Notes: generated by a model from the sequence alone, not told the origin. Counted from the first letter of the stretch, positions 33,696 through 51,315 are shown. The stretch is 64,000 bases of DNA from an uncultured bacterium (GCA_963732385.1 CAVSZB010000002.1:1-64000); one strand, 5' to 3'. Made by a program: numbers and translations.

Positions 33696-34040
33696 TCAGG
33701 ACAGCAGGCGGTCGACTTTTGCGGCACAGATGAAGTCGTTCTCGGTGAGTCCATCCACCGCATGCGTCGACCACTGCACGGTGCATTTGCCCCACACCAC
33801 CTCGAGGTCGGGGTGGTGATCCTCTGACTCGGCGATCCAGGCCACGGCGTTGACGAAACCCAGCGTGCGCGCATAGCCGTCAAAGGCAAATGCGCGCACC
33901 AGCCGCTTGCCATCAGCCGACAACGTCCAGTCCGGGTGCAGGGCGCGGCGCAACTCGGCCACGGCTGCCGGCCCCAGCGCGGGCACCCCACCTTCGCAGG
34001 GCTTGCAGCGCTTTTTCTCCAGTTTCTCGGCATCGCTCAC
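33696..34040 (-). CDS. phhB: Pterin-4a-carbinolamine dehydratase
   Basis: CKPCEGG, AESEDHHPDL, WSTHAVDGLTENDFICAAKVD. Confidence 0.93.
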   Translation of the reverse strand: MSDAEKLEKKRCKPCEGGVPALGPAAVAELRRALHPDWTLSADGKRLVRAFAFDGYARTLGFVNAVAWIAESEDHHPDLEVVWGKCTVQWSTHAVDGLTENDFICAAKVDRLLS

Positions 34041-34061: not shown

Positions 34062-35045
34062 TCACAGGGTCGTCAGGGCCACGAAGCTCCCGTCATTGCG
34101 CTCGCACAGCGCGCGCATGAGGTTGGCAAAGCGCGTGCCGTTGCGGTCCTGGCCCCCGGCAAACTGGGTGGGGAACCCGACCGCGTGGATGCGCACCAGG
34201 CGCTGGCCATCCTTGCCGGCCGTGTTGATGCGGTCCACGTAGCGCGCCACCGCCTCCACCTGGCCCTGCGGGAAATCGTCGCCGTAGATATAGATGCTGA
34301 TCTTGCGCCCGGGTTCATAAAACGAGTTGATGGCCTCGACTATCCCCTCGACCGGACTCGAATCGCTGTAGGGATTCCAGTTGGCGAGACGGCTGATGAT
34401 GTTCTTGCGCACCCCGGGTGTATCCGGCATCCACTTCCCGGCGTAGCTGGGGAACATGTACTTGCCCTCGTCGTTCATCACCTGGATGCCGCGCAGCTTC
34501 GGATAGACGGCCAGCGTTTCGCTGATCTTGCGCAGCACCAGTTGCCAGGGCCCCTGGTACATGCTGCCGGAGGTATCGATCACGAAGATGATGTATTCGC
34601 TGTCGACCGGAATGCCGCCAACCGTGGTGTCCTTGGCCGGTGGCCGGTAATCCACCAGCATCCGGCGCATCTCCTCGGTGAGGCGCTGCCTGGCAGCCTT
34701 CAGCTCACCCTCCTCGGCCGTATCCGGCACCGGCGCCTTGGTCGGTTTGTACTGGCCGCGAATCCGCGTCAGTTCGGCCTGCAGTTCGGCAATCGTCTGC
34801 TGCTTGTCACCGCGCGGCCCGGCGAGCTGGCTGGCCAGGCTGAGCGTACGCGCCTGAATGTCGGCGAGCTGCTGCTGGAGACTCGCGATCAGCGCCTCCG
34901 CTTCCTTGCGCGTGGTCTGGATGGACTCCGGCTCAAACAGCATGGTGATGACGAGCAGCAGGATCACGGCACCAAAGCCGCAGGAGATCGCGTCGAGAAA
35001 CGACAGGTTCAGGTTGTCCACTGCCTCGCGCCGCCGCCGTCTCAT
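34062..35045 (-). CDS. ExbD/MotB-like TM anchor + coiled coil + vWA domain protein (copy 2)
   Basis: MRRRRR..LSFLDAISCGFGAVILLL TM with Asp; MIDAS IFVIDTSGSM; IHAVGFP. Confidence 0.8.
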   Translation of the reverse strand: MRRRRREAVDNLNLSFLDAISCGFGAVILLLVITMLFEPESIQTTRKEAEALIASLQQQLADIQARTLSLASQLAGPRGDKQQTIAELQAELTRIRGQYKPTKAPVPDTAEEGELKAARQRLTEEMRRMLVDYRPPAKDTTVGGIPVDSEYIIFVIDTSGSMYQGPWQLVLRKISETLAVYPKLRGIQVMNDEGKYMFPSYAGKWMPDTPGVRKNIISRLANWNPYSDSSPVEGIVEAINSFYEPGRKISIYIYGDDFPQGQVEAVARYVDRINTAGKDGQRLVRIHAVGFPTQFAGGQDRNGTRFANLMRALCERNDGSFVALTTL

Positions 35046-35055
35046 GGCCGGTTCC

Positions 35056-36129
35056 TCACGGCCAGTCCCGCGACGGTGTCAGAAAGGAGCCCCGGGTCGC
35101 GATGGCCAGCCGCCAGAAAAACCCGGCCGCGTCCGGATCGCCATCCATCGGATACAGCAGCACATTCACCGGCACGCGATCCGGCAGCTCGCGCACCGCC
35201 TGATTGAAGAAGCTGGCACGCTGGGCCGGCTTCACCTGTGTGACACTGCCAGGCGCCTGTTTACCCTGGGTGGGCAGTCCGTCGGTCAGCAAATAGATAT
35301 TGTCGGGTGCCGGCCTGAGCTCACGCAGCGCTGCGAAGGCATTGGCGAGGCTGGTGCCCTTGTCCGGCACCACCTTGCGCAGTTCCTTCACGGCCTGCTC
35401 CAGCGCACCCGCTTCCAGCCAGTCACCATCGCTGCCGGGAATCACACTCTGCGCCTGCTCGTTGAACACATAGACCTGGAAGCGCGCACCGGGCTCGATC
35501 TGCGTCGTCAGCCAGTCGACCGCGGCCACCACCTGCCGCCACTTCGGTGCCTTGCGCTTGCGGGCATCCGGCATGGCCCGGTAGCGGACCACGTTCACAT
35601 AGGTCCGTGCCAGCATGCTCGACGAGGCATCGACCAGGATCACCACCCGCTTGCCGCCCATCTGCATGCCGGTCAGATACTGGCGGTTGCCATCACCGGT
35701 GAAACTGCGCACGCGGGCACCCGAACCGGACTTCTGCTGACTGGCACTGAGGCGGCTCAGGCCCTCCTCCAGGCGCTGGACGTCGGCACGCAACTGCTCG
35801 GGGCTTTCTTTCTCCGCAACGCTGTCAGCGGGCTGCGCCGCCACTTTCGCGCGCATGTCGGCAATCTGCTGTCGCAGCTTCTCGATCTGTGCAGCAGCCT
35901 GTTCGGGGGAGGGAACCGGACTGGCCTGCAGGCGCGCCAGATTGCTGCGCGCATCCCGGACTTCCTGCTCCAGGCTGCCAGCTTCGGCGAGCAGCTCCGC
36001 ACTGGCCCGCTCGGCCTTCAGCCGCACCTGGGCACTGATGATCATCAGGAACAGGATCGTGGCACCCAGGCCGCAGGCCATCACGTCCAGGAAGGAGAGA
36101 CTGAAGACGTTGAAGGATCTACGCGCCAT
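35056..36129 (-). CDS. ExbD/MotB-like TM anchor + coiled coil + vWA domain protein (copy 1)
   Basis: LSFLDVMACGLGATILFLMI TM with Asp; MIDAS ILVDASSSM, GTSL, YLLTDGLP. Confidence 0.82.
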   Translation of the reverse strand: MARRSFNVFSLSFLDVMACGLGATILFLMIISAQVRLKAERASAELLAEAGSLEQEVRDARSNLARLQASPVPSPEQAAAQIEKLRQQIADMRAKVAAQPADSVAEKESPEQLRADVQRLEEGLSRLSASQQKSGSGARVRSFTGDGNRQYLTGMQMGGKRVVILVDASSSMLARTYVNVVRYRAMPDARKRKAPKWRQVVAAVDWLTTQIEPGARFQVYVFNEQAQSVIPGSDGDWLEAGALEQAVKELRKVVPDKGTSLANAFAALRELRPAPDNIYLLTDGLPTQGKQAPGSVTQVKPAQRASFFNQAVRELPDRVPVNVLLYPMDGDPDAAGFFWRLAIATRGSFLTPSRDWP

Positions 36130-37516
36130 GGCCGGCAACTTCGGCGATCAGCCGCAGCTCGACCGGCGGCGTGCCCAGGCTGATCACATCGCCGGCCTTG
36201 AGCACCGCTGCCGTGTCCACGCGGTGCCCGTTCAGCAGCGTGCCGAAACGGCTGTGATCGAGGAGCATCTGCACACCGTTCTCGGTACGCACCGTGCAGT
36301 GATGCCGCGAAACGCCGCGCAACCCCGCCTCCAGCAGCACGCCGTGTTCCCCGGCTGTCACGCCGGTACCGATCGTCAAGGGTTCTGCGCCGAGACGCCA
36401 GGCGCGATGTCCGGCCAGCAGATGGGTTGCGGCACACTCGCTGCGTTCCGCCGGCGCCACTCCGGACGCGGCTCTTTCGACCGGCGGTCGATCCCAGGGC
36501 AGTTCGGTGCGCACCACGGGTACATCCACCCGCTCGGGCGTGAGCCGGGCAAGCGCACCGAATGCAGCGGCACCGGGTTCCAGCACATGGATTTCGCATT
36601 CCGGCAGCCGCATCAGGCTGTCGAGCACGCCGGGGAAATCGGTCAGCCGCTGCGGTACCTGCAGCACATGCGGACCCCGCATCACGATGCGCGAACGCAG
36701 CCGCTGCAGCAGCGGCTCGCAGGCTGCGGCCATGCGCTCCCGGAAATCCGCCGCGTCGATGGTGGCCCGGAACCGGTCCGTGCCGGACTTGAGTTCGAGC
36801 CGTGCATCGACATCGCGCGCCACCCGCCCCAGCCAGTCCGGCAAGCGGTCAAACAGGGCCTGCTCCATCTCCGCGCTGTGCAGCGGATCGAAGCGGCTGT
36901 GCTCGATGAAACGCCGCGCGATGAGTTCTGTCGCCAGCCGCTGCAGCGACTCCACACCCAGCGACGGGAAGAATTCGCGCTCGCCCACACGGGCCTGCCC
37001 ATCCTGGCGGATATGCGTCAGCGTCAGGGTATGCAGCCCGGCATCGATATGCAGCAATTCACGACCCGGGTACTCGTTGCGCACGGCGGCCACCGAGGCA
37101 TCCACCAGCCCGAGTATCGCCAGTTCGTATTCGCGGCTGATGTCGATCAGCGCACTGATCTGTTCGGGCGTCCACCAGGGCGGCGTGGCACAGACGAGAC
37201 CGCGCTGGCTGCTGGTGCCGTGTGTCAGCCACAGCCGGCGCAAATGCGCAGCGACGATCTCGGCGTTGGAGACAAAGGCACGCAGCGGCCGCTGCAGGGG
37301 TGCGGCCGTCAGGTCACGCCAGTAGCGCACACTGGTGAGGCGCGGCCAGCGCTTGAGCACCGGCAGAGCATCGGCACCAAAGCGCGCCGGCCCGTCCGCA
37401 ACCACCACATAGGCCGGCTCCACATGCAGCAGGCCGGTTTCGCTGACGACGGCTACGGCGGCATCATTGAGGTCGATGGCCAGCGGTGTGGTCAGGATGG
37501 GCTGGGTGCTGATCAC
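36119..37516 (-). CDS. Degenerate Hsp70/actin-fold N-terminal domain fused to C-terminal FHA domain
   Basis: LAIDLND, CATPPWW, LVDASVAA, LHIDAGLH, LGVESL echo DnaK NBD motifs; FHA: VSRHHC, SRFGTLLNG, LKAGDVISLG. Confidence 0.7.
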   Translation of the reverse strand: MISTQPILTTPLAIDLNDAAVAVVSETGLLHVEPAYVVVADGPARFGADALPVLKRWPRLTSVRYWRDLTAAPLQRPLRAFVSNAEIVAAHLRRLWLTHGTSSQRGLVCATPPWWTPEQISALIDISREYELAILGLVDASVAAVRNEYPGRELLHIDAGLHTLTLTHIRQDGQARVGEREFFPSLGVESLQRLATELIARRFIEHSRFDPLHSAEMEQALFDRLPDWLGRVARDVDARLELKSGTDRFRATIDAADFRERMAAACEPLLQRLRSRIVMRGPHVLQVPQRLTDFPGVLDSLMRLPECEIHVLEPGAAAFGALARLTPERVDVPVVRTELPWDRPPVERAASGVAPAERSECAATHLLAGHRAWRLGAEPLTIGTGVTAGEHGVLLEAGLRGVSRHHCTVRTENGVQMLLDHSRFGTLLNGHRVDTAAVLKAGDVISLGTPPVELRLIAEVAGHGA

Positions 37517-37520
37517 GGCG

Positions 37521-38318
37521 TCAGTTGACCTGCAGATGCCGGATCAGGTGTTCATCGAGATAGCTTTCGGCCTCGAAGGACAGCCGCTCCTGCAGGAGTT
37601 GCAGCTGATGCACGAGAAACATCAGCAGGATGCTGATCAGCAGGGCAATCAGCGTGGAATTGAAGGCCACGCCCAGGCTCTCGGTGACACCACTGATATC
37701 GCCCGACACCGCCTTGTTGGCCACGCCGAGCGCATCGCCGATGCCGCGCACCGTGCCGATGAAGCCGATGGAGGGAATCGCCCAGAGGATATAGCGGATC
37801 ATGGACAGCTCGGCTTCCAGCCGCTCGCCGCCCGACATCACCACGGTGTGTGCGGACGACGACGCGTCCTGCACATTGTGCGTGGCGCCAAAGCGCTGCA
37901 GGGCATTGAGCAGCGCGCGCGGCAGCAGCAGAGCCTGGTCCGCTGCTGGCAGACCCTGGATCTGGCGGATGTAGTTGCGCGTGTCTTCGGGCAGGATCCG
38001 CATGCCCTCCGCGATCGGCACCAGCTCGCGATCAAGCATCTCCCGCTCGCGCGCCACATTGCGCGCCTTGTAGCCCATGATCGAGAGCGCCCACAGCCCC
38101 AGCACGAAGCAGGCCTCCTGCTCGTAGTCCTTGAGCACGATGTACCAGGAACGCTGCGGGGTGTAGCTCGCATCCTGCTTCACCATCTGCCGGTTCTGCT
38201 CGATCACCGCCTGCGCATTCGGCCAGACCAGCGTGACATACACCGCATGCACCAGCAGCACGGACAGCAGCAGCGAGAAGAGCTGATAGACAAACTCGGC
38301 GGAGAAGGTTCTTTGCAT
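37521..38318 (-). CDS. MotA/TolQ/ExbB proton channel family protein
   Basis: IPSIGFIGTVRGIG and LGVAFNSTLIAL TM motifs; two extra N-terminal TM helices. Confidence 0.9.
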   Translation of the reverse strand: MQRTFSAEFVYQLFSLLLSVLLVHAVYVTLVWPNAQAVIEQNRQMVKQDASYTPQRSWYIVLKDYEQEACFVLGLWALSIMGYKARNVAREREMLDRELVPIAEGMRILPEDTRNYIRQIQGLPAADQALLLPRALLNALQRFGATHNVQDASSSAHTVVMSGGERLEAELSMIRYILWAIPSIGFIGTVRGIGDALGVANKAVSGDISGVTESLGVAFNSTLIALLISILLMFLVHQLQLLQERLSFEAESYLDEHLIRHLQVN

Positions 38319-38343
38319 GGACTGATTCCCGGTCGGCAGAGGT

Positions 38344-38679
38344 TCAGATATCCGAAGGCAGCGAAACGCCGAGGTCGGCAGGCAGGGGCTTTTCAGCCAC
38401 CACCTCGCCCGGATCCGGACCGCCGCTGAGCACTTTCTCGACGTTCTTCAGCTCGGCCTCGATCTCGGCGGAGGACAGCTCTTCGACTGCTCCGGCAGCC
38501 GGCACCGCGGCCGGTTCGGCCGGGCGGCCCGCATCCAGCTGCAGCATCGACGGCGGATCGCGGCTGAAGGTGCTGCCGGCCGTCAAAGAATCGCGGCTGA
38601 AGCCGCTCCTACCGGCTGCCCAGGTCAGGCCCAGGCCCAGTCCGATCACCAGCAGGGTGCGCCAGATGTTCCCCAGCAT
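38344..38679 (-). CDS. Small exported hypothetical protein carrying in-frame REP sequence
   Basis: Hydrophobic N-terminus (WRTLLVIGLGLGLTWAA); fills the operon gap 4 bp after the upstream stop; C-terminal LPADLGVSLPSDI. Confidence 0.65.
   Translation of the reverse strand: MLGNIWRTLLVIGLGLGLTWAAGRSGFSRDSLTAGSTFSRDPPSMLQLDAGRPAEPAAVPAAGAVEELSSAEIEAELKNVEKVLSGGPDPGEVVAEKPLPADLGVSLPSDI
38557..38613 (-). repeat. Intragenic REP (one full and one degenerate tandem copy)
   Basis: Minus strand GTAGGAGCGGCTTCAGCCGCGATTC (38588-38612) is identical to the REPIN A arm; second copy CACCTTCAGCCGCGAT near 38557-38572. Confidence 0.8.
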
Positions 38680-38683
38680 CGCC

Positions 38684-41092
38684 TCATCGCTCCTGGTCGT
38701 CGGCCGTGCGTGCGATCCGGAAACCCACATCGAGACGGCCGCTGTCACCGAAATCGCGGAAGGACAGGCGCAGCTCGCTGATGCCACTGTGGCGCCAGCT
38801 CGAACCGCGGATCACATGATACTGCCCGTCAGCCGGCCCGGTGGGATCGACCGCCAGCGGCACGCCGGAGGGGTAGACGGTGTAGCGGTCGCTGGCCCAC
38901 TCCGCCGCATTGCCACCCAGGTCAAACAGGCCGAGCGGACTGGCGCTGAAGCTGCCGACCGGTGCCGTCACCGCATGGCCATCGCTGTAGTCGGCCAGCA
39001 CATTGCTGACGATGCCCTGTGCCGTGCGATCCGCAAAGTTGCCGGCACCAGCCGGTGGCGGCATCGCATCACCCCAGGGGTATCGGCGACTGCCACCACC
39101 GCCGGTATGACGTGCGGTCCACTCCCACTCCGCCTCGGTGGGCAGGCGGTAGCCCGTGGTCGGCGGTGTCGCCAGCGCCAGCTGCCCGGCAACCTCCACA
39201 TAGGCGCGCGGAAGTTGCTCCTGGTCGCTCAGCCAGTTGCAGTAGGCCGCCGCATCCTGCCAGCCCAGCATCACCACCGGGTGGCTGCCCGCAGCCAGCT
39301 GCTGGAATTTCTCCGCGCCGGAAGTATGCCGGGGCTGGAAGGCGCGGTACTGGCTGTTCGTCACCTCGTGCCTGGCGATATAGAAGGCCCGCGTCAGGCG
39401 CACCTCGCGCTCGGTCTCGTTGGCCCGCCGACCCTGCTCGCGGCGCGGCGCACCCATGCGGAACTGGCCGGGCTGGATCAGCCGCAACTCCTGCCCCTGC
39501 GAAGTCGTCACGGTACGCGGTGTGGCTGCAATCACCGCCTGCTGCGGCGTCAGCAGCCTGGCCACGACCTCCTGCGGCTGGCCAGGCTGCGGCGTGACTT
39601 CAGTGCGGTAAGGCGCGAAGCCCGGCTTGCGGAATTCGAAGCGATGGGCGAAGGACGGCAGCGACAGTTCGCGCGGTCCGCTGCCCAGCGACTTGCCATC
39701 GACCAGCAGCTCGGCATCAGCTGGCTCACTGCGCACACGAACGACGCCGATGCGCGCCGCGAGTTCGACACGCAGCGTTGCGCCACGGCTGCTGCGGAGG
39801 TCCACGTCGCGGGTCAATGATTCATGGCCGGGCTTGCTCAGCGCGACCGGGTAGCTGCGTCCCGGCGGCAGGCCGATTTCCAGCGGCGTCACACCCCGGT
39901 AGCGACCCGCAACCGTCACCGTCGCGCCCGGCGGCTCGCTGATGATGCGCACCAGGCCGTCGGCCTGCTCCAGCTTGAGGTCGGCAATCTGCTGCGGCTG
40001 GTTGGCCACCGCGCTGACCCGGCGCGTGAGCGTCTTGAAACCGTCCTTCTCGAGACTGAGCATGCGTTCGCCGGCCAGCAGTTCCAGTTTGAGTGGCGTG
40101 GTGCCAGCCGGCACACCATCCACCAGCACGGCAGCACCCGCCGGCACGCTGCTGATGGTGACCTCGGCCCAGTCCGGCACGAGCCGGGCCTCGATGGCCT
40201 GCACCACACCGCCGCCCTCCACCGTCAGCGCGGTCTCCCAGGGCTGATAACGCGGTGCCACGATACGCAGCTGGTGGCTGCCGGCCTTGACCTCGATGGG
40301 TGGTGTCGGCGTGCGGCCGACGCTCAGGCCATCGATGCTCGCTTCAGCCGCAACGGCCGGCTGCGTGCTGAGCAGGAGCTGCCCCGGCAGGCGGTCCAGC
40401 CGCAGGCTGAAGTCCTGGCTGGGCGCATCCGTGACCTGGATGCCGAGCTCGCCGGGCACATGGCCCTCAGCGGTCGCGCGCACCGTGTAGCGGCCCGGCC
40501 GCAGCAGATAGCGGCCGGCAAAGCGCAGATCCGGCACACCCTGCATATCGACCACCGCGATCGCCGGATCCACAGTGACCAGCACGGCGCGCGAAGTCAG
40601 CAACCAGAAGGCGCACGCAGCCAGCACGAGCAGCGCCGCCCAGATCGCCGGTGCGCGCCAGCGCGGAGCGGCGCGGCGCCTGAAGGATGCCCGCGGCACC
40701 ATCGGTGGTGCCTGGGCCGTTGCGGCGGCAGCCTCGCGCGGCTCCGCTGCCGGTGGCAGCGTGTCGTAGTCCACAGCGCTGAAGCGCAGCCGGAACTCGA
40801 GCAGATCAGCGCCGAAAGCACAGCGGATCCGGGCGCTGCCGATACCGATCTCGTCACCATCCGCGAGCCAGCGCGTGCCGGTGAGCGGCACCTCGTTGAC
40901 GGTGACCTGCGTGCCGGTCGGCTGCAGGAAGGGCCGACCATCCAGCAGCCCCATCAGCGCGTGGCTCTGGTCCGCAACCGGACCCGGCAGACGGATCGCT
41001 GCGGCCGGCCCGGTGCCGATACGCAACGGCAGGTCGGCCTCGCCAAAGCGGCGCGTACCCGAAGCGTCATGCACGACGATGGCGGAACTCAA
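38684..41092 (-). CDS. FHA-like + TM + multiple PEGA domains + C-terminal FGE-sulfatase (SUMF1/C-type lectin fold) domain protein
   Basis: PEGA repeats (ISSVPAGAAVLVDG..GTTP; SEPPGATVTVAG; SEPADAELLVDG); HEVTN, RLPTEAEWE, YPWG, GLFDLGGNAAEW, RGSSW, GFR; TTG start overlaps the kinase stop. Confidence 0.88.
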   Translation of the reverse strand: MSSAIVVHDASGTRRFGEADLPLRIGTGPAAAIRLPGPVADQSHALMGLLDGRPFLQPTGTQVTVNEVPLTGTRWLADGDEIGIGSARIRCAFGADLLEFRLRFSAVDYDTLPPAAEPREAAAATAQAPPMVPRASFRRRAAPRWRAPAIWAALLVLAACAFWLLTSRAVLVTVDPAIAVVDMQGVPDLRFAGRYLLRPGRYTVRATAEGHVPGELGIQVTDAPSQDFSLRLDRLPGQLLLSTQPAVAAEASIDGLSVGRTPTPPIEVKAGSHQLRIVAPRYQPWETALTVEGGGVVQAIEARLVPDWAEVTISSVPAGAAVLVDGVPAGTTPLKLELLAGERMLSLEKDGFKTLTRRVSAVANQPQQIADLKLEQADGLVRIISEPPGATVTVAGRYRGVTPLEIGLPPGRSYPVALSKPGHESLTRDVDLRSSRGATLRVELAARIGVVRVRSEPADAELLVDGKSLGSGPRELSLPSFAHRFEFRKPGFAPYRTEVTPQPGQPQEVVARLLTPQQAVIAATPRTVTTSQGQELRLIQPGQFRMGAPRREQGRRANETEREVRLTRAFYIARHEVTNSQYRAFQPRHTSGAEKFQQLAAGSHPVVMLGWQDAAAYCNWLSDQEQLPRAYVEVAGQLALATPPTTGYRLPTEAEWEWTARHTGGGGSRRYPWGDAMPPPAGAGNFADRTAQGIVSNVLADYSDGHAVTAPVGSFSASPLGLFDLGGNAAEWASDRYTVYPSGVPLAVDPTGPADGQYHVIRGSSWRHSGISELRLSFRDFGDSGRLDVGFRIARTADDQER

Positions 41093-42960
41093 ATCGCTTC
41101 CTCGCAGCGGATCACCACGGGTGGCATGTTGCCCGCCGGATCGACACGGATGTTACGCCGGACATCGCGGTAGCCATCGCGCGTACCCACCACGACATAG
41201 GGTCCGGGCCGCAGCTCCAGGCTGCGGCTGCTGAAGGTGCCCAGATTACCCACCTTGTAGATCACGACAGTGGTCTGGTTGTCGGACTCGAATTGTACGG
41301 CCACCGGCTGTGCCGCCACGGCGAGTTGCGCCTTGAGCCTTTCGATCTGCCCGCGCAGCACCGGGCCGGGTGCCGGCACCGCAGCCGCCTCAGCCACGAG
41401 GCGCTGCGCGGGGCCGGCGATCGCATCGTCGTTGAAGCGCTCGGCACGCGCCAGCGCCTGCTCAAGCTGCTGATCGAGTTGTGCGCGGGCCTGTGCTGCG
41501 GCCAGGCCCTGCTGTACGCCCAGCACGTTCGCATCGATCGCCAGCACCGCCGCGTATCTGGCCACTGCTGCCGGCCACTGCTCGGCGGCGACCAGCTGCT
41601 GCGCTTCTGCCTGCAGTGTCGCAATGCTCGCGCGCCGCTCTTCGGCGTGCAGCTGGGCCAGCGCGTTCTGTACACCCGGATCCTGCGGACGCAGCGCAAC
41701 CGCGCGATCGATGGCCTGCCGGGCCTCGGCCAGTTGTCCGGCTGCGAGCGCGTTGAGGCCGCGCGACAGCGCCCGCTCGAATTCCTGCGCTGACTTGTCC
41801 GGCGGCGCTGGTTTTGGCGGGCTGGCAGCGATGCGCGGCGCGGGCGGCGGAGGCGGCGGTGGCAGCGCTTTCTCTGCGGGCGCGGCCGCTGCGGGTGGCG
41901 GTGATGGCTCCGGTGTTGCAGGCGGTGCGGGTGCCGCAGGTGTCGCGGCCACGGGCGGTGGCGGAAGAACCACCGGGCGTTCGCTGACCAGCTTCGGCAA
42001 CAGGAACAGCACAGCAGCCAGGCCCGCGAGCAGCAGGAGCGCGCCGGCATAGACCAGCCAGGCCGGCAAGCCGTCGCGGCGCTGACTGCGCAGCTTCTGC
42101 AGTACGGCTGGCGAGGCTTCGCTCAGTGCCGGGCTGTCGCCGCGCTTGCGCCGCGACCGACTGCCCTCGTCCTGCAGCAGCTCTTCGAGCACTGCCCGCA
42201 CCGCCGCCATGCCGACCGGCCGGCGTGCGGGCGACTTTTCCAGCAGCGCCGCCACGAGCTGGACCAGGGCCAGTGGCAGCGGCTGGCCCGCGCCATCGAC
42301 ACCGGGACGGGCCGGAATCTCGTTGCGGATCCGTTCCGGCGTGATGTCGGGGTGCAGTGGCGGCGCACCGGACAGCAGGTCGTACAGCAGCGCGCCCAAG
42401 GCGTAAACATCATCGCTGACCGTCGGTGAGGCACCGGCAAGCTGCTGCGGACTCACGTTCGACAGCGACACCGCACCACCGCTGCTGAATGCCGCCATCC
42501 GGAAATCGCAGAGTCGCCAGCGTCCGTCCGCATCGCCGAGCAGGTTGGCCACTTTCAGATCGCCATGCACCACACCCTGCGCATGCGCGTACTGCAGGGC
42601 CTCGACCACCTCGATCAGCGCGGCAACGATGCGCTGCCAGGCCGCACCGCGCAGCGCGGCGGACTCGGCACCGATCACCGCCTCCATCGAGATGCAGCAA
42701 CGCGCACCGTCGGCATGGACGCCATGGATACGCACGATGCCGGGATGCACGAGGCGCTGCAGGGGCTCGAGTTCGCCGCACAGGGTATCGGCAAGGCGAC
42801 TGGCGGCCGCCGGATCGGCAACGGTGATGATCTTCAGCGCGACGTCCACAGCCAGCGCCGTGTCGCTGGCCAGCCAGACCTCGGCGCTGCCGCCGCGACC
42901 GAGCAAACGGCGCAGACGAAAACGCTCCGCCAGCACCAGATCTGCTGCAAGCCCTGACAT
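41089..42960 (-). CDS. Membrane-anchored Hanks-type Ser/Thr protein kinase with Pro-rich linker, TPR-like helices and C-terminal PEGA-like domain
   Basis: LGRGGSAEVW, VALK, HGDLKVANLL, DFR, SPQQ, DVYALG; TM AWLVYAGALLLLAGLAAVLFLL. Confidence 0.88.
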   Translation of the reverse strand: MSGLAADLVLAERFRLRRLLGRGGSAEVWLASDTALAVDVALKIITVADPAAASRLADTLCGELEPLQRLVHPGIVRIHGVHADGARCCISMEAVIGAESAALRGAAWQRIVAALIEVVEALQYAHAQGVVHGDLKVANLLGDADGRWRLCDFRMAAFSSGGAVSLSNVSPQQLAGASPTVSDDVYALGALLYDLLSGAPPLHPDITPERIRNEIPARPGVDGAGQPLPLALVQLVAALLEKSPARRPVGMAAVRAVLEELLQDEGSRSRRKRGDSPALSEASPAVLQKLRSQRRDGLPAWLVYAGALLLLAGLAAVLFLLPKLVSERPVVLPPPPVAATPAAPAPPATPEPSPPPAAAAPAEKALPPPPPPPAPRIAASPPKPAPPDKSAQEFERALSRGLNALAAGQLAEARQAIDRAVALRPQDPGVQNALAQLHAEERRASIATLQAEAQQLVAAEQWPAAVARYAAVLAIDANVLGVQQGLAAAQARAQLDQQLEQALARAERFNDDAIAGPAQRLVAEAAAVPAPGPVLRGQIERLKAQLAVAAQPVAVQFESDNQTTVVIYKVGNLGTFSSRSLELRPGPYVVVGTRDGYRDVRRNIRVDPAGNMPPVVIRCEEAI

Positions 42961-42972
42961 GTGGCGCGGGAG

Positions 42973-44208
42973 CTATCCGGCCGGCGGACTGATGACCGCG
43001 GCCTCGGCGGAATCGATACCGGGCGTGCCAGTTTCAGCGGAATAGATCTCGCGGAGCAGCCGGCGCCACTCCTGGTAGCGCTCTTCGGCTGTACCGGTCA
43101 GGCGCCGCGTCTGGCCCTCGATTTCCACCACCAGCGGTTCTGCCTCGGCATTGAAGGAGCCGCCGAGTTCCTTCAAGGACTCGCGACTGATGTTGGCCTC
43201 GGTGTTCTTGCCCAGACCGCTCTTGATGCCTTCGATGCCGCCCATCACGCCGGTCATGGTGATCGCACTGTTGTCGCCGCCAGCACCCTCGTAGAGGATC
43301 GCGGCGAGAATCGCCAACGCACCAGCTGCGCCGCGCACGTAAGCCGAGCGTTTCAGATCCTGGTAGCGGATCACTTCTTCGCGTGACATCTTGCGCCAGT
43401 CTTCATAGGGCTTGTTGATCTCGTAATAGAGATTGGCGTAGTACTCGTTCAGCGTATCGACGAGTGCATATTCGCGCTCGCGTACCGCCTGCATGCGACT
43501 GACCATCGGATCGTCTTCAGCTGGCAGCCGCCGCAATTTGTAGATGCCTGCGCGGTCCTGTTCCAGCAGCCCGGCGAAGGCTTCGGGCACCAGCTGTGCA
43601 CCGTAGCGGAGTTCGGCGACGTTGCGCAGCGTGCGCAACTCGGCGGCCGACAGCTTGCGGCGGGCCGCGAGCAGATCATTGGCGATCTGGTTGTAGAGCA
43701 CCTGGTAGGGATCCTGCCCGGGCTCGCGGTACTGCGAATAGGCCTTCTCCGGTATCCGCACCGTATAGCCCTTGTTCAGCCATTCGCGCCCGGTCGCGTC
43801 CCAGGCACCGATGTGCACGCCGACATCCAGTCCATTGGACAGGTCGATACGGCCGGTAACGGTCAGGTCCACCGCATCCGAGCGCTGCGGCACCACCCAC
43901 ACCGAACCCCAGTAGCCGCTGGACTCGAGCGTGGTCTTCAGTTGATAGGGCATGTAGCGCGCCTCGGCCTGACGCACTTCCGGGAAGATCAGCTTCTTCT
44001 CGTCAGCCAGGCTGTCGGCACTGGTACCCGGATCAAAGAGGATGATGCCCACGTCCAGACGTTCGATATCCGGCACCTCGGCCGCTGCACGGACCAGTTC
44101 CGCCTGCGGATAATCGATGGTGCGGGCGGTCGAACAGCCGCCAAGCAGCCAGGACAGGAGGACGAGCGCCGCAAGCAAAGCCGGCGATGTACGCAGCCCG
44201 CTACTCAT
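42973..44208 (-). CDS. Hypothetical lipoprotein
   Basis: Lipobox LLGGC; 411-aa ORF overlapping the upstream stop (ATGA); glycine-rich amphipathic segment GAAGALAILAA..GVMGG. Confidence 0.75.
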   Translation of the reverse strand: MSSGLRTSPALLAALVLLSWLLGGCSTARTIDYPQAELVRAAAEVPDIERLDVGIILFDPGTSADSLADEKKLIFPEVRQAEARYMPYQLKTTLESSGYWGSVWVVPQRSDAVDLTVTGRIDLSNGLDVGVHIGAWDATGREWLNKGYTVRIPEKAYSQYREPGQDPYQVLYNQIANDLLAARRKLSAAELRTLRNVAELRYGAQLVPEAFAGLLEQDRAGIYKLRRLPAEDDPMVSRMQAVREREYALVDTLNEYYANLYYEINKPYEDWRKMSREEVIRYQDLKRSAYVRGAAGALAILAAILYEGAGGDNSAITMTGVMGGIEGIKSGLGKNTEANISRESLKELGGSFNAEAEPLVVEIEGQTRRLTGTAEERYQEWRRLLREIYSAETGTPGIDSAEAAVISPPAG

Positions 44209-45092
44209 TTCGTTTTCATTCCCATCTGCTTGCGGTATTCGTTCCAGAGCGCATCGCGGATCTTTGGATCGGTTTCGGCTTCGGCCGCCGCGCGAATCTG
44301 CTTGGCGACCTGGTCTTCGGCTGAACCATCGACGGGAATGTCGTCGGGAATCTTTGCCACCTTGCCGGCCTCGGCCGACGGCGACTCGGCACCGCCGCCG
44401 GTACCCTGGTTCTTGCCGGCACCCGCCTCGCTGCCTTCCTCGGCACCAGCTGGTGTGCTGCCCGGGACACCGCCCTCCATGCCTTCACCATCAGCGCCAC
44501 CGCTGCTGGCACCCCGGCCCTGGACCGACGGTAGCTCTGCAGCGCTGCCCGGGCCATCCATACCCGTCCCGCGACTGGCCGACTTCACCGCGGAGGAATC
44601 GCCCGACTCGCGGCCCTCGGCGGCGCGGCCCGAGCCGGTGCCGGCCTTGGCCATTGCGGCACGTTCGCCGCCGATTTCGCCGTCAAAGTCGCCCAGTGAT
44701 TTCTCGAAGGCGATTTCAGCATCGCTGGTGCCTGACCCGGCACCGCTGCCGGCAGTCTTGTTGCTGCCGGTGCTGCCCGGCGTACCGGCCTGTGTACCTG
44801 CCTGTGTACCGGCCTGTGTACCTGCTTCTGAGCCTGCTTCTGAGCCCGACTCCGAGCCTTCTGCCTGTGCACCCGACTGTGAGCCAGCCGATGAACCTGC
44901 CTGCGAGCCGGATTGCGAGCCAGCCTGGGTACCAGCACCTGCACTCGATCCGGATTGGGATCCAGACTGCGAACCAGATTGCGATCCCGACGAGCTCTGT
45001 GTACTCCCGCTGTTGCCAGGCGGCGGCTGAACAGGCGGACTGCTGCAGGCAGCGAGCGCCAGTGCTGCAACAAGGACAGGCATCCGTGACAT
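44205..45092 (-). CDS. Low-complexity Gly/Ser/Gln/Ala lipoprotein with ordered C-terminal helical tip
   Basis: Lipobox LAAC; QSGS/QAGT/EAGS tetrapeptide repeats; C-terminal IPDDIP..DQVAKQIRAAAEAETDPKIRDALWNEYRK. Confidence 0.75.
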   Translation of the reverse strand: MSRMPVLVAALALAACSSPPVQPPPGNSGSTQSSSGSQSGSQSGSQSGSSAGAGTQAGSQSGSQAGSSAGSQSGAQAEGSESGSEAGSEAGTQAGTQAGTQAGTPGSTGSNKTAGSGAGSGTSDAEIAFEKSLGDFDGEIGGERAAMAKAGTGSGRAAEGRESGDSSAVKSASRGTGMDGPGSAAELPSVQGRGASSGGADGEGMEGGVPGSTPAGAEEGSEAGAGKNQGTGGGAESPSAEAGKVAKIPDDIPVDGSAEDQVAKQIRAAAEAETDPKIRDALWNEYRKQMGMKTK

Positions 45093-48475: not shown

Positions 48476-50731
48476 GTGACCCGATCCCGCATCCCGCATT
48501 TCTACAAGATGAGCGTCGCCGAACGCGTGCGCGCCGTACACGAGCGCGGCCTGCTCGACGATGCCGATTTCGACCGCCTGTCCAGCGGTCAGACAACTCT
48601 CGACCTGCAGGCTGCCGACAAGATGATCGAGAACGTCATCGGCGTACTCGGCATCCCCATCGGACTCGGCCTGAATTTCCTGATCAACGGCAAGGACTAC
48701 GTCGTGCCGATGGCGGTCGAAGAACCTTCGATCGTTGCCGCCATCAGCGCAACCGCCAAACTGGCCCGCGAATCCGGCGGCTTTGCCACCAGCTCCACCC
48801 CGCCGGTCCTGATCGGCCAGATCCAGGTACTCGATGTGCCTGACATGCCCGCAGCCCACGCTGCCCTCCTCGAACGCAAGCAGGAAATCCTCGACCTGGC
48901 CAACAGCCTCCATCCGCGCATGGTGGCGCGCGGCGGCGGTGCGGTGGACATGGAGGTGCGCTCCTACCCGCTGCGCTCGCTGCCCGGCGAGATGCTGGTG
49001 GTGCACCTGCTCGTGGATACGCGCGACGCGATGGGTGCCAACCTCGTCAACGGCATGTGTGAAGGCGTGGCCCCGCTGATCGAGCAGATCACCGAAGGCA
49101 CGGTCTTCCTGCGCATCCTGTCGAATCTCGCCGACCGCGCGCTCGCGCGCGCCGAGGTCGTGCTGCCGGTGGCCCAACTGGCCGGCAAGGGCTATGCCGG
49201 CGAACGGGTGCGCGACGGCATCATCATCGCGGCAGACTTTGCCCACGCCGATCCCTACCGGGCGGCGACGCACAACAAGGGTGTCATGAATGGCGTCGAT
49301 GCCGTGGCCCTGGCCACCGGCAACGACTGGCGCGCCATCGAGGCCGGCGCACATGCCTATGCAGCCCGGCATGGCCACTATGGTTCGCTCACGGAGTGGT
49401 GGCAGGACGACGCCGGCAACCTGTGCGGGCGCATCGAGATGCCCATGAAGGTCGGCATCGTCGGCGGCCCGCTGGAATCAAATCCCGGTGTCGCGATGAA
49501 CCTGCGTCTGCTCGGCGCCGAAACCGCCACCGAACTCGCCGAGGTGATGGCGGCCGTGGGCCTGGCCCAGAATTTCGCCGCGCTGCGGGCGCTGGCCACC
49601 GACGGCATCCAGACCGGCCACATGACGCTGCACGCACGCAGCGTGGTGAAGGCCGCGGGGACGCCACCCGAACTATTCAACGAAGTGCTGGAACGCGTGC
49701 TCCAGAGCGGCGAGATCAAGGTATGGAAAGCCGAGCAGATCCTCGCCGAGATCCGGCAGCCGCGACCCGCCGCGGCGATTGCCGGACGGCGTGACGCGGA
49801 AACCGGCGTCGGCATCGGTCATGGCAAGGTCATCCTGCTCGGCGAGCATGCCGTGGTGCATGGCCGCCACGCCATCGCGCTGCCGGTGCCGCTGACGATC
49901 CGTGCGGTCGTCGAGGATGGCGAGCGCGGCGTCGAGCTGCTGATCCCGCGCTGGGGCGTCGAATACCAGCTGGCCAAACCCGCTGATCAGCGCCGCTCCT
50001 TCGAACGCGCCGCCGGTGCGATTCTCGACAAGCTGGGTCTCGCCAACCGCAAGCTGCGCATCGAGGTATCACCCGATGTGCCGCGCGGCATGGGTCTCGG
50101 CGGCTCGGCCGCACTGGCAGTGGCCATCGTCCGTGCCCTGGACCTGCACTTCCGGCTGGGGCTGAGCGACACCGAGGTCAACGAGCTGGCATATCTGTCC
50201 GAGCAGATCGCCCATGGTCAGCCCAGCGGCATCGACAACACGATGGCCACCTACGGCACTCCGCTGGTCTACCGCCGCGGCTCGCCACCGCTGATCGAGA
50301 CACTCAACATCCCGGCGCCGCTCACCCTGGTCGTCGGCATGACGCACAACGAGGGGCTCACCGCCCGTACCGTGGCCAACGTCGCCGAAGCACGGCAACG
50401 CAACCCGCGACTCTATGAAAAGATCTTCGATGACATCGACGCGCTGGTACTGCAGGCTGTGTCGGCAATCCAGGACAACGACATCGCCACCCTCGGTGAC
50501 CTCATGAACATCAACCAGGGCCTGCTGAATGCACTGCAGGTTTCAAGCCCCGAACTCGAGCGCCTGATCGGCGTGGCGCGCAACGCCGGCGCCGCCGGCG
50601 CCAAGCTGACCGGTGGTGGTGGCGGCGGCGCCATGATCGCACTGTGCGCCGACAACAGCAGCGACATCCAGGCCGCCATCGAGCGCCAGGGATTCCGCAC
50701 CCTGGTCGTCAAGGCAGGCAACAGATCATGA
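48476..50731 (+). CDS. mvaA: Class II HMG-CoA reductase fused to C-terminal mevalonate kinase (GHMP)
   Basis: HMGR: ENVIG, EEPSIVAA, DAMGAN, ATHNKG, GNDWRAIEAG, GHMTLHAR; kinase: GKVILLGEHAVVHG, PRGMGLGGSAA, HGQPSGID, KLTGGGGGG; one continuous 751-aa ORF. Confidence 0.93.
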   Translation: MTRSRIPHFYKMSVAERVRAVHERGLLDDADFDRLSSGQTTLDLQAADKMIENVIGVLGIPIGLGLNFLINGKDYVVPMAVEEPSIVAAISATAKLARESGGFATSSTPPVLIGQIQVLDVPDMPAAHAALLERKQEILDLANSLHPRMVARGGGAVDMEVRSYPLRSLPGEMLVVHLLVDTRDAMGANLVNGMCEGVAPLIEQITEGTVFLRILSNLADRALARAEVVLPVAQLAGKGYAGERVRDGIIIAADFAHADPYRAATHNKGVMNGVDAVALATGNDWRAIEAGAHAYAARHGHYGSLTEWWQDDAGNLCGRIEMPMKVGIVGGPLESNPGVAMNLRLLGAETATELAEVMAAVGLAQNFAALRALATDGIQTGHMTLHARSVVKAAGTPPELFNEVLERVLQSGEIKVWKAEQILAEIRQPRPAAAIAGRRDAETGVGIGHGKVILLGEHAVVHGRHAIALPVPLTIRAVVEDGERGVELLIPRWGVEYQLAKPADQRRSFERAAGAILDKLGLANRKLRIEVSPDVPRGMGLGGSAALAVAIVRALDLHFRLGLSDTEVNELAYLSEQIAHGQPSGIDNTMATYGTPLVYRRGSPPLIETLNIPAPLTLVVGMTHNEGLTARTVANVAEARQRNPRLYEKIFDDIDALVLQAVSAIQDNDIATLGDLMNINQGLLNALQVSSPELERLIGVARNAGAAGAKLTGGGGGGAMIALCADNSSDIQAAIERQGFRTLVVKAGNRS

Positions 50732-51315
50732 GCGGACTGGCCCGGGCTGCCGTGAGCGAGGATCTGCTGATCCTGGTCGACGAGGCCGATCGCGAGATCG
50801 GCACCTTGCCGAAAACCGAATGTCATCTGGGCGGCGGCACACTGCATCGTGCCTTCTCGGTGTTCCTGTTCGATGCCGACGGCAGGGTACTGATACAGGA
50901 GCGCGCGGCCGGCAAGATGCTGTGGCCGGGTTACTGGTCCAACAGCTGCTGCAGCCATCCGCGACCCGGAGAAGCCACCGAGGCAGCGGCCAGGCGCCGC
51001 GTACGGGAAGAGCTGCAGCTCGATTGCCGCCTCGATTTTCTGTACAAGTTCCGCTATCAGGCTGCCTTCGGCAGCATCGGCTCCGAGCACGAGCTGTGCT
51101 ACGTCTATGCGGGCTACGCCACCGGCAAGATCAGCACCGACCCACTGGAAATCGCGGCGATACGCTGGCTGACACCCGACGAACTCGGTCGCGAGATTGC
51201 CGCCGAGCCGGCGCGCTTCAGTCCGTGGATGAAGCTCGAGTGGCAGCAGATCACCGCCAGCCATCTGGAGCAGATCCTCGATCGTTGCCGGAAGCCGGAC
51301 ACATGGCGAACGTAG
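50728..51315 (+). CDS. idi: Isopentenyl-diphosphate delta-isomerase, type 1
   Basis: LILVDE, CH..LHRAFSVFLF, WPGYWSNSCCSHPRPGE, EHELC, FSPW; ATGA overlap. Confidence 0.95.
   Translation: MSGLARAAVSEDLLILVDEADREIGTLPKTECHLGGGTLHRAFSVFLFDADGRVLIQERAAGKMLWPGYWSNSCCSHPRPGEATEAAARRRVREELQLDCRLDFLYKFRYQAAFGSIGSEHELCYVYAGYATGKISTDPLEIAAIRWLTPDELGREIAAEPARFSPWMKLEWQQITASHLEQILDRCRKPDTWRT

Follow-up and report, generated by a model that had tools for sequence, protein, structure and literature searches.

Ion-driven motors of 5:2 stoichiometry are known from the flagellar stator, Ton, Tol, gliding, type IX secretion (the T9SS) and Zorya, each of which powers a different basic process. A further class, the second of the vWA families in Williams-Jones et al. 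2025 (PMC12204202), combines a TolQ-like pentamer with two vWA proteins bearing an Asp-carrying helix; in the accessible text of that paper this trans-pore-helix (TPH)-vWA class is treated computationally only and no function is reported. Here we describe a cluster of nine genes (g1 to g9, numbered in reading order along the minus strand, positions 45092-34062; Table 1) found in a window of 64,000 nucleotides, namely C2:1-64000 of genome G000. To judge from its sequence, this cluster most likely builds a proton-driven motor spanning the cell envelope. All nine open reading frames (ORFs) are co-oriented and either overlap by 4-20 nt or are separated by gaps of 4-25 nt, in agreement with a preliminary description of the window, which had noted overlaps or gaps of 25 bp or less; the start of gene 5, at 38679, lies 4 nt beyond gene 4.

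The motor core formed by g6, g8 and g9 matches the TPH-vWA class by the features described in the accessible part of PMC12204202, not by sequence kinship with the Idiomarina example given there. As in that class, a TolQ-like gene is present in an operon devoid of tolR, exbD and motB, two different vWA proteins each possess an Asp-bearing N-terminal helix, and a conserved Thr ring (T189 and T222 of g6) lines the lumen of the pentamer. In contrast, the main text of that paper, as far as accessible, contains 0 mentions of kinase or PEGA, and g1-g5 and g7 are not described in it. The motor core is already in print there as an in silico prediction, while the outer-membrane partners, g5 and a function were not found described in the accessible text. 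A functional study of the machine or a description of its other parts was likewise not found in the open-access literature. The term 'undescribed' used in the preliminary description is therefore too wide for the motor core and holds for the rest of the machine and its function within that literature.

Residues P182, T189 and T222 of g6 align with P138, T145 and T178 of TolQ (a weak match, E 0.079) and are invariant in 166/166 homologues. In TolQ, T145 and T178 form a ring facing Asp23 of TolR, according to the accessible part of PMC8928145. The acidic counterpart, Asp18, is retained in 149/153 homologues of g8 and 139/141 of g9, so that the proposed conserved unit with an ion-motor signature is recovered. 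By profile alignment (92.9% probability) g8 and g9 are paralogues, with vWA heads that are 18% identical; the residues of the metal ion-dependent adhesion site (MIDAS) of g9 are found in 141/141 homologues, and the stalk between Asp and MIDAS measures 127-158 residues. Families ExbD, TolR and MotB score nowhere above cut-off in the nine proteins (Pfam, NCBIfam). While the motor chemistry is evident from these conserved residues, a 5:2 stoichiometry and rotation would follow by analogy with TolQR, ExbBD and MotAB. A Cys residue four positions after Asp18, Cys22, is near-invariant in both trans-pore helices as well (150/153 in g8, 139/141 in g9), and the pair could link the g8/g9 dimer. Frames of 690 amino acids suggestive of a g8-g9 fusion turned out to be merely long stop-to-stop frames.

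Conservation was assessed in 171 loci, 2 of which have no g6 call and 128 of which have full flanks; the sample is non-random, being weighted to the best matches, one family and one order. The seven core parts scored are g2, g6, g8, g9, the PEGA and FGE (formylglycine-generating enzyme) domains of g4 and the C-terminal portion of g3. All seven are grouped in 118/128 full-flank loci, in 116 of which g1 is detected too, and in a tblastn map of 81 loci the gene order is kept except for splits and losses. Since the core parts stand together in so many loci and in constant order, the cluster is, on this comparative sequence evidence, not a product of chance but real and widely conserved; the scatter of homologues that would have spoken against the preliminary description is not observed. 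The remaining 10/128 loci comprise six split operons, three with displaced g6 and one distant relative (L139). In split operons g9 is located elsewhere in 5/5 genomes tested, and a search of the three genomes with displaced g6 recovered g9 in 3/3 and g2 in 2/3.

In the six split loci (L024, L025, L026, L028, L042 and L077) the break lies between g5 and g6, with g9 relocated; in L024 and L026 the split is made by genes that we take to be ppk/ppx-like. A second copy of g9 is present in 2/5 of the tested split-operon genomes. The distant relative (L139:7821-12449) shows a different architecture, in which a g6-like gene precedes genes for a protein with the look of an FHA protein and for a single coiled-coil protein with an Asp helix, with further genes after these.

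The core amounts to eight genes, to which the kinase, the FHA domains and the Hsp70-fold protein g7 are optional. A kinase is encoded in 77/118 core loci, every one of them with both FHA-scoring domains and g7. Among the 41/118 kinase-lacking core loci both FHA domains are absent in 36, as judged by profiles built from close homologues which distant FHA domains could escape, g7 is absent in 28, and g3 is also shorter. On a FastTree phylogeny of g6 the kinase label changes 6 times, with 3 changes forced by strong branches; a paired test of kinase-FHA co-evolution is limited to 3 independent pairs and is not significant, at low power. As kinase, FHA domains and g7 are absent from many core loci, phospho-regulation is a lineage add-on and not the general trait it had been taken for, and with the cytoplasmic tier optional the output of the motor cannot generally be cytoplasmic.

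Kinase motifs in 85 homologues include HRD/DFG in 49 and HGD/DFG in 17. The window copy combines HGD with DFR, the latter seen in 1/85; as DFR replaces DFG, this kinase may be impaired. Canonical phosphothreonine-binding FHA domains contain Gly-Arg, Ser-x-x-His and Asn-Gly motifs. Both FHA domains of the operon are without the usual Gly-Arg: the degenerate domain of g4 has neither the Arg nor Ser-x-x-His, and that of g7 has no Arg after Gly383 and retains Ser403/His406 in 56/56, Arg404 in 89% and Arg423 in 93% of homologues. The Hsp70 fold attributed to g7 was recovered in its AlphaFold2 model (pLDDT, predicted local distance difference test, 92.1), for which Foldseek returns the Hsp70 nucleotide-binding-domain fold at 1e-15 to DnaK/BiP; the FHA domain stands in place of the Hsp70 substrate-binding domain. 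Position 15 of g7 is His in 61, Glu in 31 and Asp in 17 of 124 homologues, Gly160 is found in 39/124, and with conserved phosphate-loop residues lacking g7 is probably no ATPase.

These parts could be read as an envelope-sensing relay, in which g5 would be a periplasmic cue read by g3 and g4, the signal would pass through kinase and FHA domains and the motor would act as effector. The joint occurrence of both FHA-scoring domains and g7 in 77/77 kinase-bearing core loci, a PP2C phosphatase gene upstream in 24 loci and the retention of Ser403, Arg404, His406 and Arg423 in the FHA domain of g7 are in line with such a relay. It is nevertheless very unlikely, given that g5 is kept in the loci devoid of kinase and of both FHA domains, that the 3 independent tree pairs yield no significance and that the FHA motifs are non-canonical.

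The small protein g5, an ORF ending in P-x-[DN]-[IFL], follows g4 in 153/157 loci by a rule-based search; of the four loci missed, three have the motif farther downstream and in L183 none was found. The chance background of the motif is 5 matches among 51,589 other ORF ends. At the C-terminus of 154 homologues Pro is found in 154, Asp in 138, Asn in place of Asp in 16, Ile in 151 and Phe at position -4 in 126, and a hydrophobic core precedes the motif in 150/154. In minimal loci g5 has 40-55 codons, a length easily overlooked by gene callers, and consists of a signal peptide and about 16 residues, with the cleavage site placed by an A-x-A pattern. The preliminary description had listed g5 as a small exported protein, which agrees with its signal-like N-terminus and leaves out the conserved C-terminal motif. 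Only one full-length match per genome is observed in 5/5 carriers, and g5 is for this reason regarded as a subunit or ligand and not as a shared sorting signal.

From the gene content, the co-retention of the parts, the motor and MIDAS residues and the folds of g2 and g7 we infer an arrangement in which g8 and g9 would pair as a heterodimer, their Asp-bearing helices enclosed by five g6 subunits, and ion flow would turn the dimer against this ring. Two vWA heads, both dependent on Mg, would be held by the stalks at the outer side of the periplasm. MIDAS sites bind carboxylates, and the heads, whose MIDAS residues are observed, may grip a carboxylate on a presumed partner. The first candidate for such a handle is the Asp-Ile C-terminus of g5, the second the acidic C-terminal hairpin of the lipoprotein g1. 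With its TPR region and beta-domain g3, and with its four PEGA repeats and catalytically dead FGE dock g4, would serve as inner-membrane-anchored struts holding the target still, and g2 would form the outer-membrane end. Force would thus be exerted on the g1/g2 lipoprotein assembly, whether to pull, to gate or to remodel at the outer membrane. As no cytoplasmic partner exists in the minimal version, the work would be done in the periplasm; in some lineages, that of the window included, the cytoplasmic tier (g3 kinase, g4 and g7 FHA domains, g7 Hsp70 fold) is probably there to tune assembly or activity. In our estimate it is an even call that the operon encodes a housekeeping 5:2 envelope motor, with an outer-membrane lipoprotein assembly as the presumed target on which the vWA heads pull. 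A more specific version, in which the 5:2 motor turns an integrin-like vWA pair gripping the 16-residue g5 by its F-P-x-D-I end and thereby pulls or gates an alpha-helical outer-membrane pore of g2, is tentative and rather to be doubted; it would make the operon a general machine of the outer membrane driven by proton motive force, beside Ton, Tol and T9SS, and part of the core in some abundant marine lineages.

The envelope components would provide the outer end of this proposed motor. Residues 20-240 of g1 consist to 85% of G, S, A, Q, T, E and P, by which composition g1 is a long disordered tether, and its C-terminal acidic hairpin motif is kept in homologues. By a rough rule a lipobox is present in 71/115 homologues of g1 and 96/128 of g2, with Asp at +2 in none; Cys25 of g2 is conserved. 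The AlphaFold2 model of g2 (pLDDT 83.3) gives borderline Foldseek matches, the best being 8z5n (E 4.7e-4), with FlgT (3w1e) at 7.5e-4, and structure alignment (VIA) yields Z 8.8 and a root mean square deviation (rmsd) of 5.3 over 174 amino acids for 8z5n and Z 8.0, rmsd 2.9 over 122 amino acids for PelC. The modelled fold thus appears, at a borderline level, to be shared with ring-forming or Tol-associated envelope proteins, by analogy with which g2 is probably a ring-forming outer-membrane end. Among the Atlas look-alikes of g2 only unnamed clusters and no Pfam family were found, and a sequence search of the PDB with the g2 profile gave 0 hits. At its C-terminus (window 41089-41110) g3 carries a C-E-x-x-I that is conserved, Cys619 being present in at least 90% of homologues. 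In the FGE domain of g4 no Cys is found at the catalytic positions aligned to FGE structures; lacking the two catalytic Cys, the domain is by sequence non-catalytic and not a formylglycine-generating enzyme, as had been proposed. It also matches PorK/GldK (1.5e-27), and a non-catalytic FGE fold of PorK type is the docking hub in another machine driven by proton motive force, according to the accessible part of PMC12421860.

Several observations tell against the envelope motor as proposed. In split or rearranged operons g5 stays adjacent to g4 and not to g8/g9, and kept beside g4 it indicates the FGE domain equally well as its receptor. A strict bond between Asp and MIDAS becomes less plausible with Asn in 16/154 homologues of g5, unless the terminal carboxylate serves instead. 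The fold matches of g2 are borderline, with E values of about 5e-4 and Z scores of 8-9 near the background of the tool, and g2 was not found in 1/3 of the g6-displaced genomes searched. As just 31/350 genomes of a class-wide sample (including the unpublished G404) have g6, the operon is dispensable in most lineages. A conserved peptidoglycan-binding partner is not seen, the OmpA-like neighbour being absent from 24 divergent loci. Finally, the proposal is built on sequence and predicted structure.

Attempts to discriminate between possible g5 receptors computationally remained neutral. Complex prediction with the last 35 residues of g5, the FGE domain of g4 and both vWA heads gave a score of 0.65, the control with replaced FGE 0.66 and controls with replaced partner 0.00, and the result was not used for or against binding. 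In a covariation analysis (mutual information with average product correction, MI-APC, 115-153 loci per pair) the top g5 score, 5.6, came from the cytoplasmic control g7, which renders the analysis uninformative. A scan for compensatory changes shows that in the g5 Asp-to-Asn clade, a single clade, D688 of FGE and R128 of g9 change alongside.

The operon has its channel family and its Asp/Thr chemistry in common with Tol-Pal (TolQRA-TolB-Pal) and Ton (ExbBD-TonB); g2 has, at a borderline level, a fold like TolB-N, and the force would likewise be directed to the outer membrane. Unlike these systems, the operon is without TolA or TonB, the periplasmic domain of TolR/ExbD, a beta-propeller and a core Pal, and its axle bears vWA heads. 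As carriers keep a separate TolB (5/5 tested), the operon does not replace Tol-Pal. With the GldLM-GldKN (PorLM-PorKN) assembly of T9SS and gliding, as described in the accessible literature, it shares an ion motor, a long dimeric shaft in the periplasm and a catalytically inactive docking protein of FGE fold, whereas its channel is of the MotA family, its FGE domain sits on PEGA repeats with an inner-membrane anchor (GldK/PorK being lipoproteins) and a translocon gene is missing. Against the GldK model g4 reaches 108 bits at a cut-off of 350. The MoxR-vWA ternary systems (PMC7159879) likewise combine vWA with FGE and PEGA domains, but the operon has no MoxR AAA+ ATPase, and the accessible text of that paper contains 0 mentions of MotA or TolQ.

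The resemblance to T9SS, which in the accessible part of PMC12421860 likewise couples an ion motor to a ring of FGE fold, gives some weight to a dedicated T9SS- or Ton-like export or import machine, in which g2 would form the pore for cargo driven by the motor, while the FGE domain would be the docking hub and the g5 motif would act as sorting signal. Further points in its favor are the similarity of g2 to the outer-membrane transport rings CsgG and PelC and the Gly/Ala-rich tip of its hairpin. The second helix of that hairpin is weakly hydrophobic, however (median 0.33), the single full-length g5 match in each of the 5/5 carrier genomes does not fit a sorting signal, and the flanking clusters hold no conserved cargo or beta-barrel gene, so that transport is an unlikely reading, though one to be kept in view.

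A surface motility or adhesion motor similar to Agl-Glt of Myxococcus, with the vWA domains as adhesins, is decidedly unlikely. The vWA adhesin CglB acts in Myxococcus gliding, as far as the accessible literature goes, PMC12204202 in its accessible text suggests gliding for its other vWA family, and flagellin is absent from 3/5 carriers. Being tethered to inner-membrane helices, however, the vWA heads of g8 and g9 should remain periplasmic, no conserved surface adhesin gene is found among the neighbours, and the operon is kept in genomes of 1.7-1.8 Mb.

Among the functions suggested in the preliminary description, motility and phage defence thus become weaker candidates, the latter the more so. 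Zorya ZorAB shares a MotA-type channel with the operon, which is without the OmpA-type ZorB, the long ZorA tail and an effector; none of the Zorya models in PADLOC 2.0.0 matches any of the nine proteins. The PpkA/Fha1/TagR relay of Pseudomonas has in common with it a kinase, an FHA protein and a protein of FGE fold, without a link to the type VI secretion system (T6SS) on the side of the operon; g7 scores 31 bits against the TagH model, with a cut-off of 120. A Zorya-like anti-phage system or a post-translational T6SS relay of this type could account for the motor and kinase/FHA parts, which are found in such systems, and for the generic matches of the kinase to PADLOC kinase models. The only other match is that of g8 to a coiled-coil JetC model, with none for g6 or g9, which agrees with the expected distinction from known defence systems. 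Moreover, the operon has a core single-copy distribution, plasmid and phage searches gave no match to it, no conserved effector gene is present in the flanking clusters, and TssC was detected in 0/5 carriers tested, which largely excludes the T6SS form; a defence or T6SS role is accordingly highly improbable. The proposed separation from T6SS and flagella is borne out by the same carriers, flagellin being present in 2/5 and absent from 3/5.

The g6 family is large: at E<=1e-20 it has at least 8,000 clusters, and the genome collection holds at least 598 stretches, with records assigned to Gammaproteobacteria (mostly Woeseiaceae) and Acidobacteriota. It is single-copy in 142/151 genomes of the family of L065 (a tally including the unpublished G243) and present in 26/61 genomes of one order, and the operon is retained in genomes of 1.7-1.8 Mb without flagellin or TssC. 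A look-up of the clusters turned up no carrier with a cultured name. Occurring once per genome through most of a large marine family and retained in genomes below 2 Mb, the operon probably serves an envelope function not yet named. The eight-gene minimal form, the micropeptide and the residues listed above make the system directly testable.

Table 1. Genes of the cluster and the adjoining gene, with predicted features (window coordinates).
Gene	Position	Strand	Status	Features
g1	44205..45092	-	core	lipoprotein; lipobox LAAC; long disordered G/S/A/Q/T/E/P-rich linker; acidic C-terminal helical hairpin, ~45 aa
g2	42973..44208	-	core	lipoprotein, predicted for the outer membrane; N-terminal domain with FlgT/TolB-N/PelC/CsgG fold, followed by helical hairpin of 120 residues, tip Gly/Ala-rich
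g3	41089..42960	-		optional cytoplasmic Ser/Thr kinase, aa 16-249; transmembrane helix 302-320; core periplasmic TPR region and C-terminal beta-domain
g4	38684..41092	-		optional degenerate FHA; transmembrane helix 147-165; core part of four PEGA repeats and non-catalytic FGE-fold domain 537-795
g5	38344..38679	-	core	exported protein of 111 aa; signal-like N-terminus, variable linker, C-terminal motif [FLWY]-P-x-[DN]-I-COOH
g6	37521..38318	-	core	MotA/TolQ/ExbB-type channel subunit, predicted pentamer; PF01618 8e-12
g7	36119..37516	-	optional	cytoplasmic Hsp70-NBD/actin-fold domain and C-terminal FHA; probably no ATPase
g8	35056..36138	-	core	trans-pore helix with Asp18 and Cys22; stalk; vWA head, complete MIDAS D170, S172, S174, T262, D286
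g9	34062..35045	-	core	paralogue of g8; trans-pore helix Asp18/Cys22; stalk; vWA head, MIDAS D157, S159, S161, S227/S229, D256
pterin-4a-carbinolamine dehydratase	33696-34040	-	outside core	PF01329 4e-29; tenth co-oriented gene, 21 nt past g9

The domain assignments of the preliminary description are largely reproduced by Pfam, with Pkinase (6e-27) and weak TPR matches in g3, PEGA (4e-52, four stretches) and FGE-sulfatase (2e-46) in g4, MotA_ExbB (8e-12) in g6, FHA (8e-10) in g7 and VWA_2 (8e-8) in g8. Two assignments are weak, namely FHA in g4 (0.004, below cut-off) and VWA in g9 (0.03), the latter being backed by the alignment with g8. No Pfam match was obtained for g1, g2 and g5, and an NCBIfam scan of the nine proteins gave no model at its cut-off. 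A scan for promoters and terminators returned 0 promoters and 7 terminators vs 5.6 expected.

The pterin dehydratase gene adjoins the operon in 41 loci and in 0/24 divergent loci and is a neighbour specific to the lineage. Similarly, in loci of Woeseiaceae type a PdsO-like OmpA gene is found downstream in 39 (e.g. L031:14398-15132), again in 0/24 divergent loci, and besides the upstream phosphatase gene mentioned above a second kinase gene occurs in 21 (e.g. L066:218-2324); neither OmpA-like nor PP2C phosphatase nor second kinase gene adjoins the operon in the window.

The tetranucleotide make-up of contig C2 is unlike that of the seven other contigs of the bin long enough to test (third principal component, PC3, -7.1 vs -1.4 to +2.8), and C2 itself is two-part, with a sharp change of composition near 180 kb. 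The contig is probably mis-binned and chimeric. A gammaproteobacterial record, L019, is collinear with C2 28,622-48,480 (78-84% identity), and for L018 the identity reaches 99.6% across 2.8 kb; the window is by these matches probably gammaproteobacterial DNA mis-binned into another genome. Because C2 differs from the rest of the bin, searches of its own genome were not used to describe the host of the window, and their result of 1/207 is no measure of spread among the kin of the host. One other genome of the bin's own family carries the full operon at about 50% identity (L017, G094:C10), either as a true occurrence in that phylum or as a further mis-binned contig. At window positions 48476-51315 the translation shows a gene resembling an HMG-CoA reductase with a fused mevalonate-kinase-like domain, and after it an isopentenyl diphosphate (IPP) isomerase-like gene.

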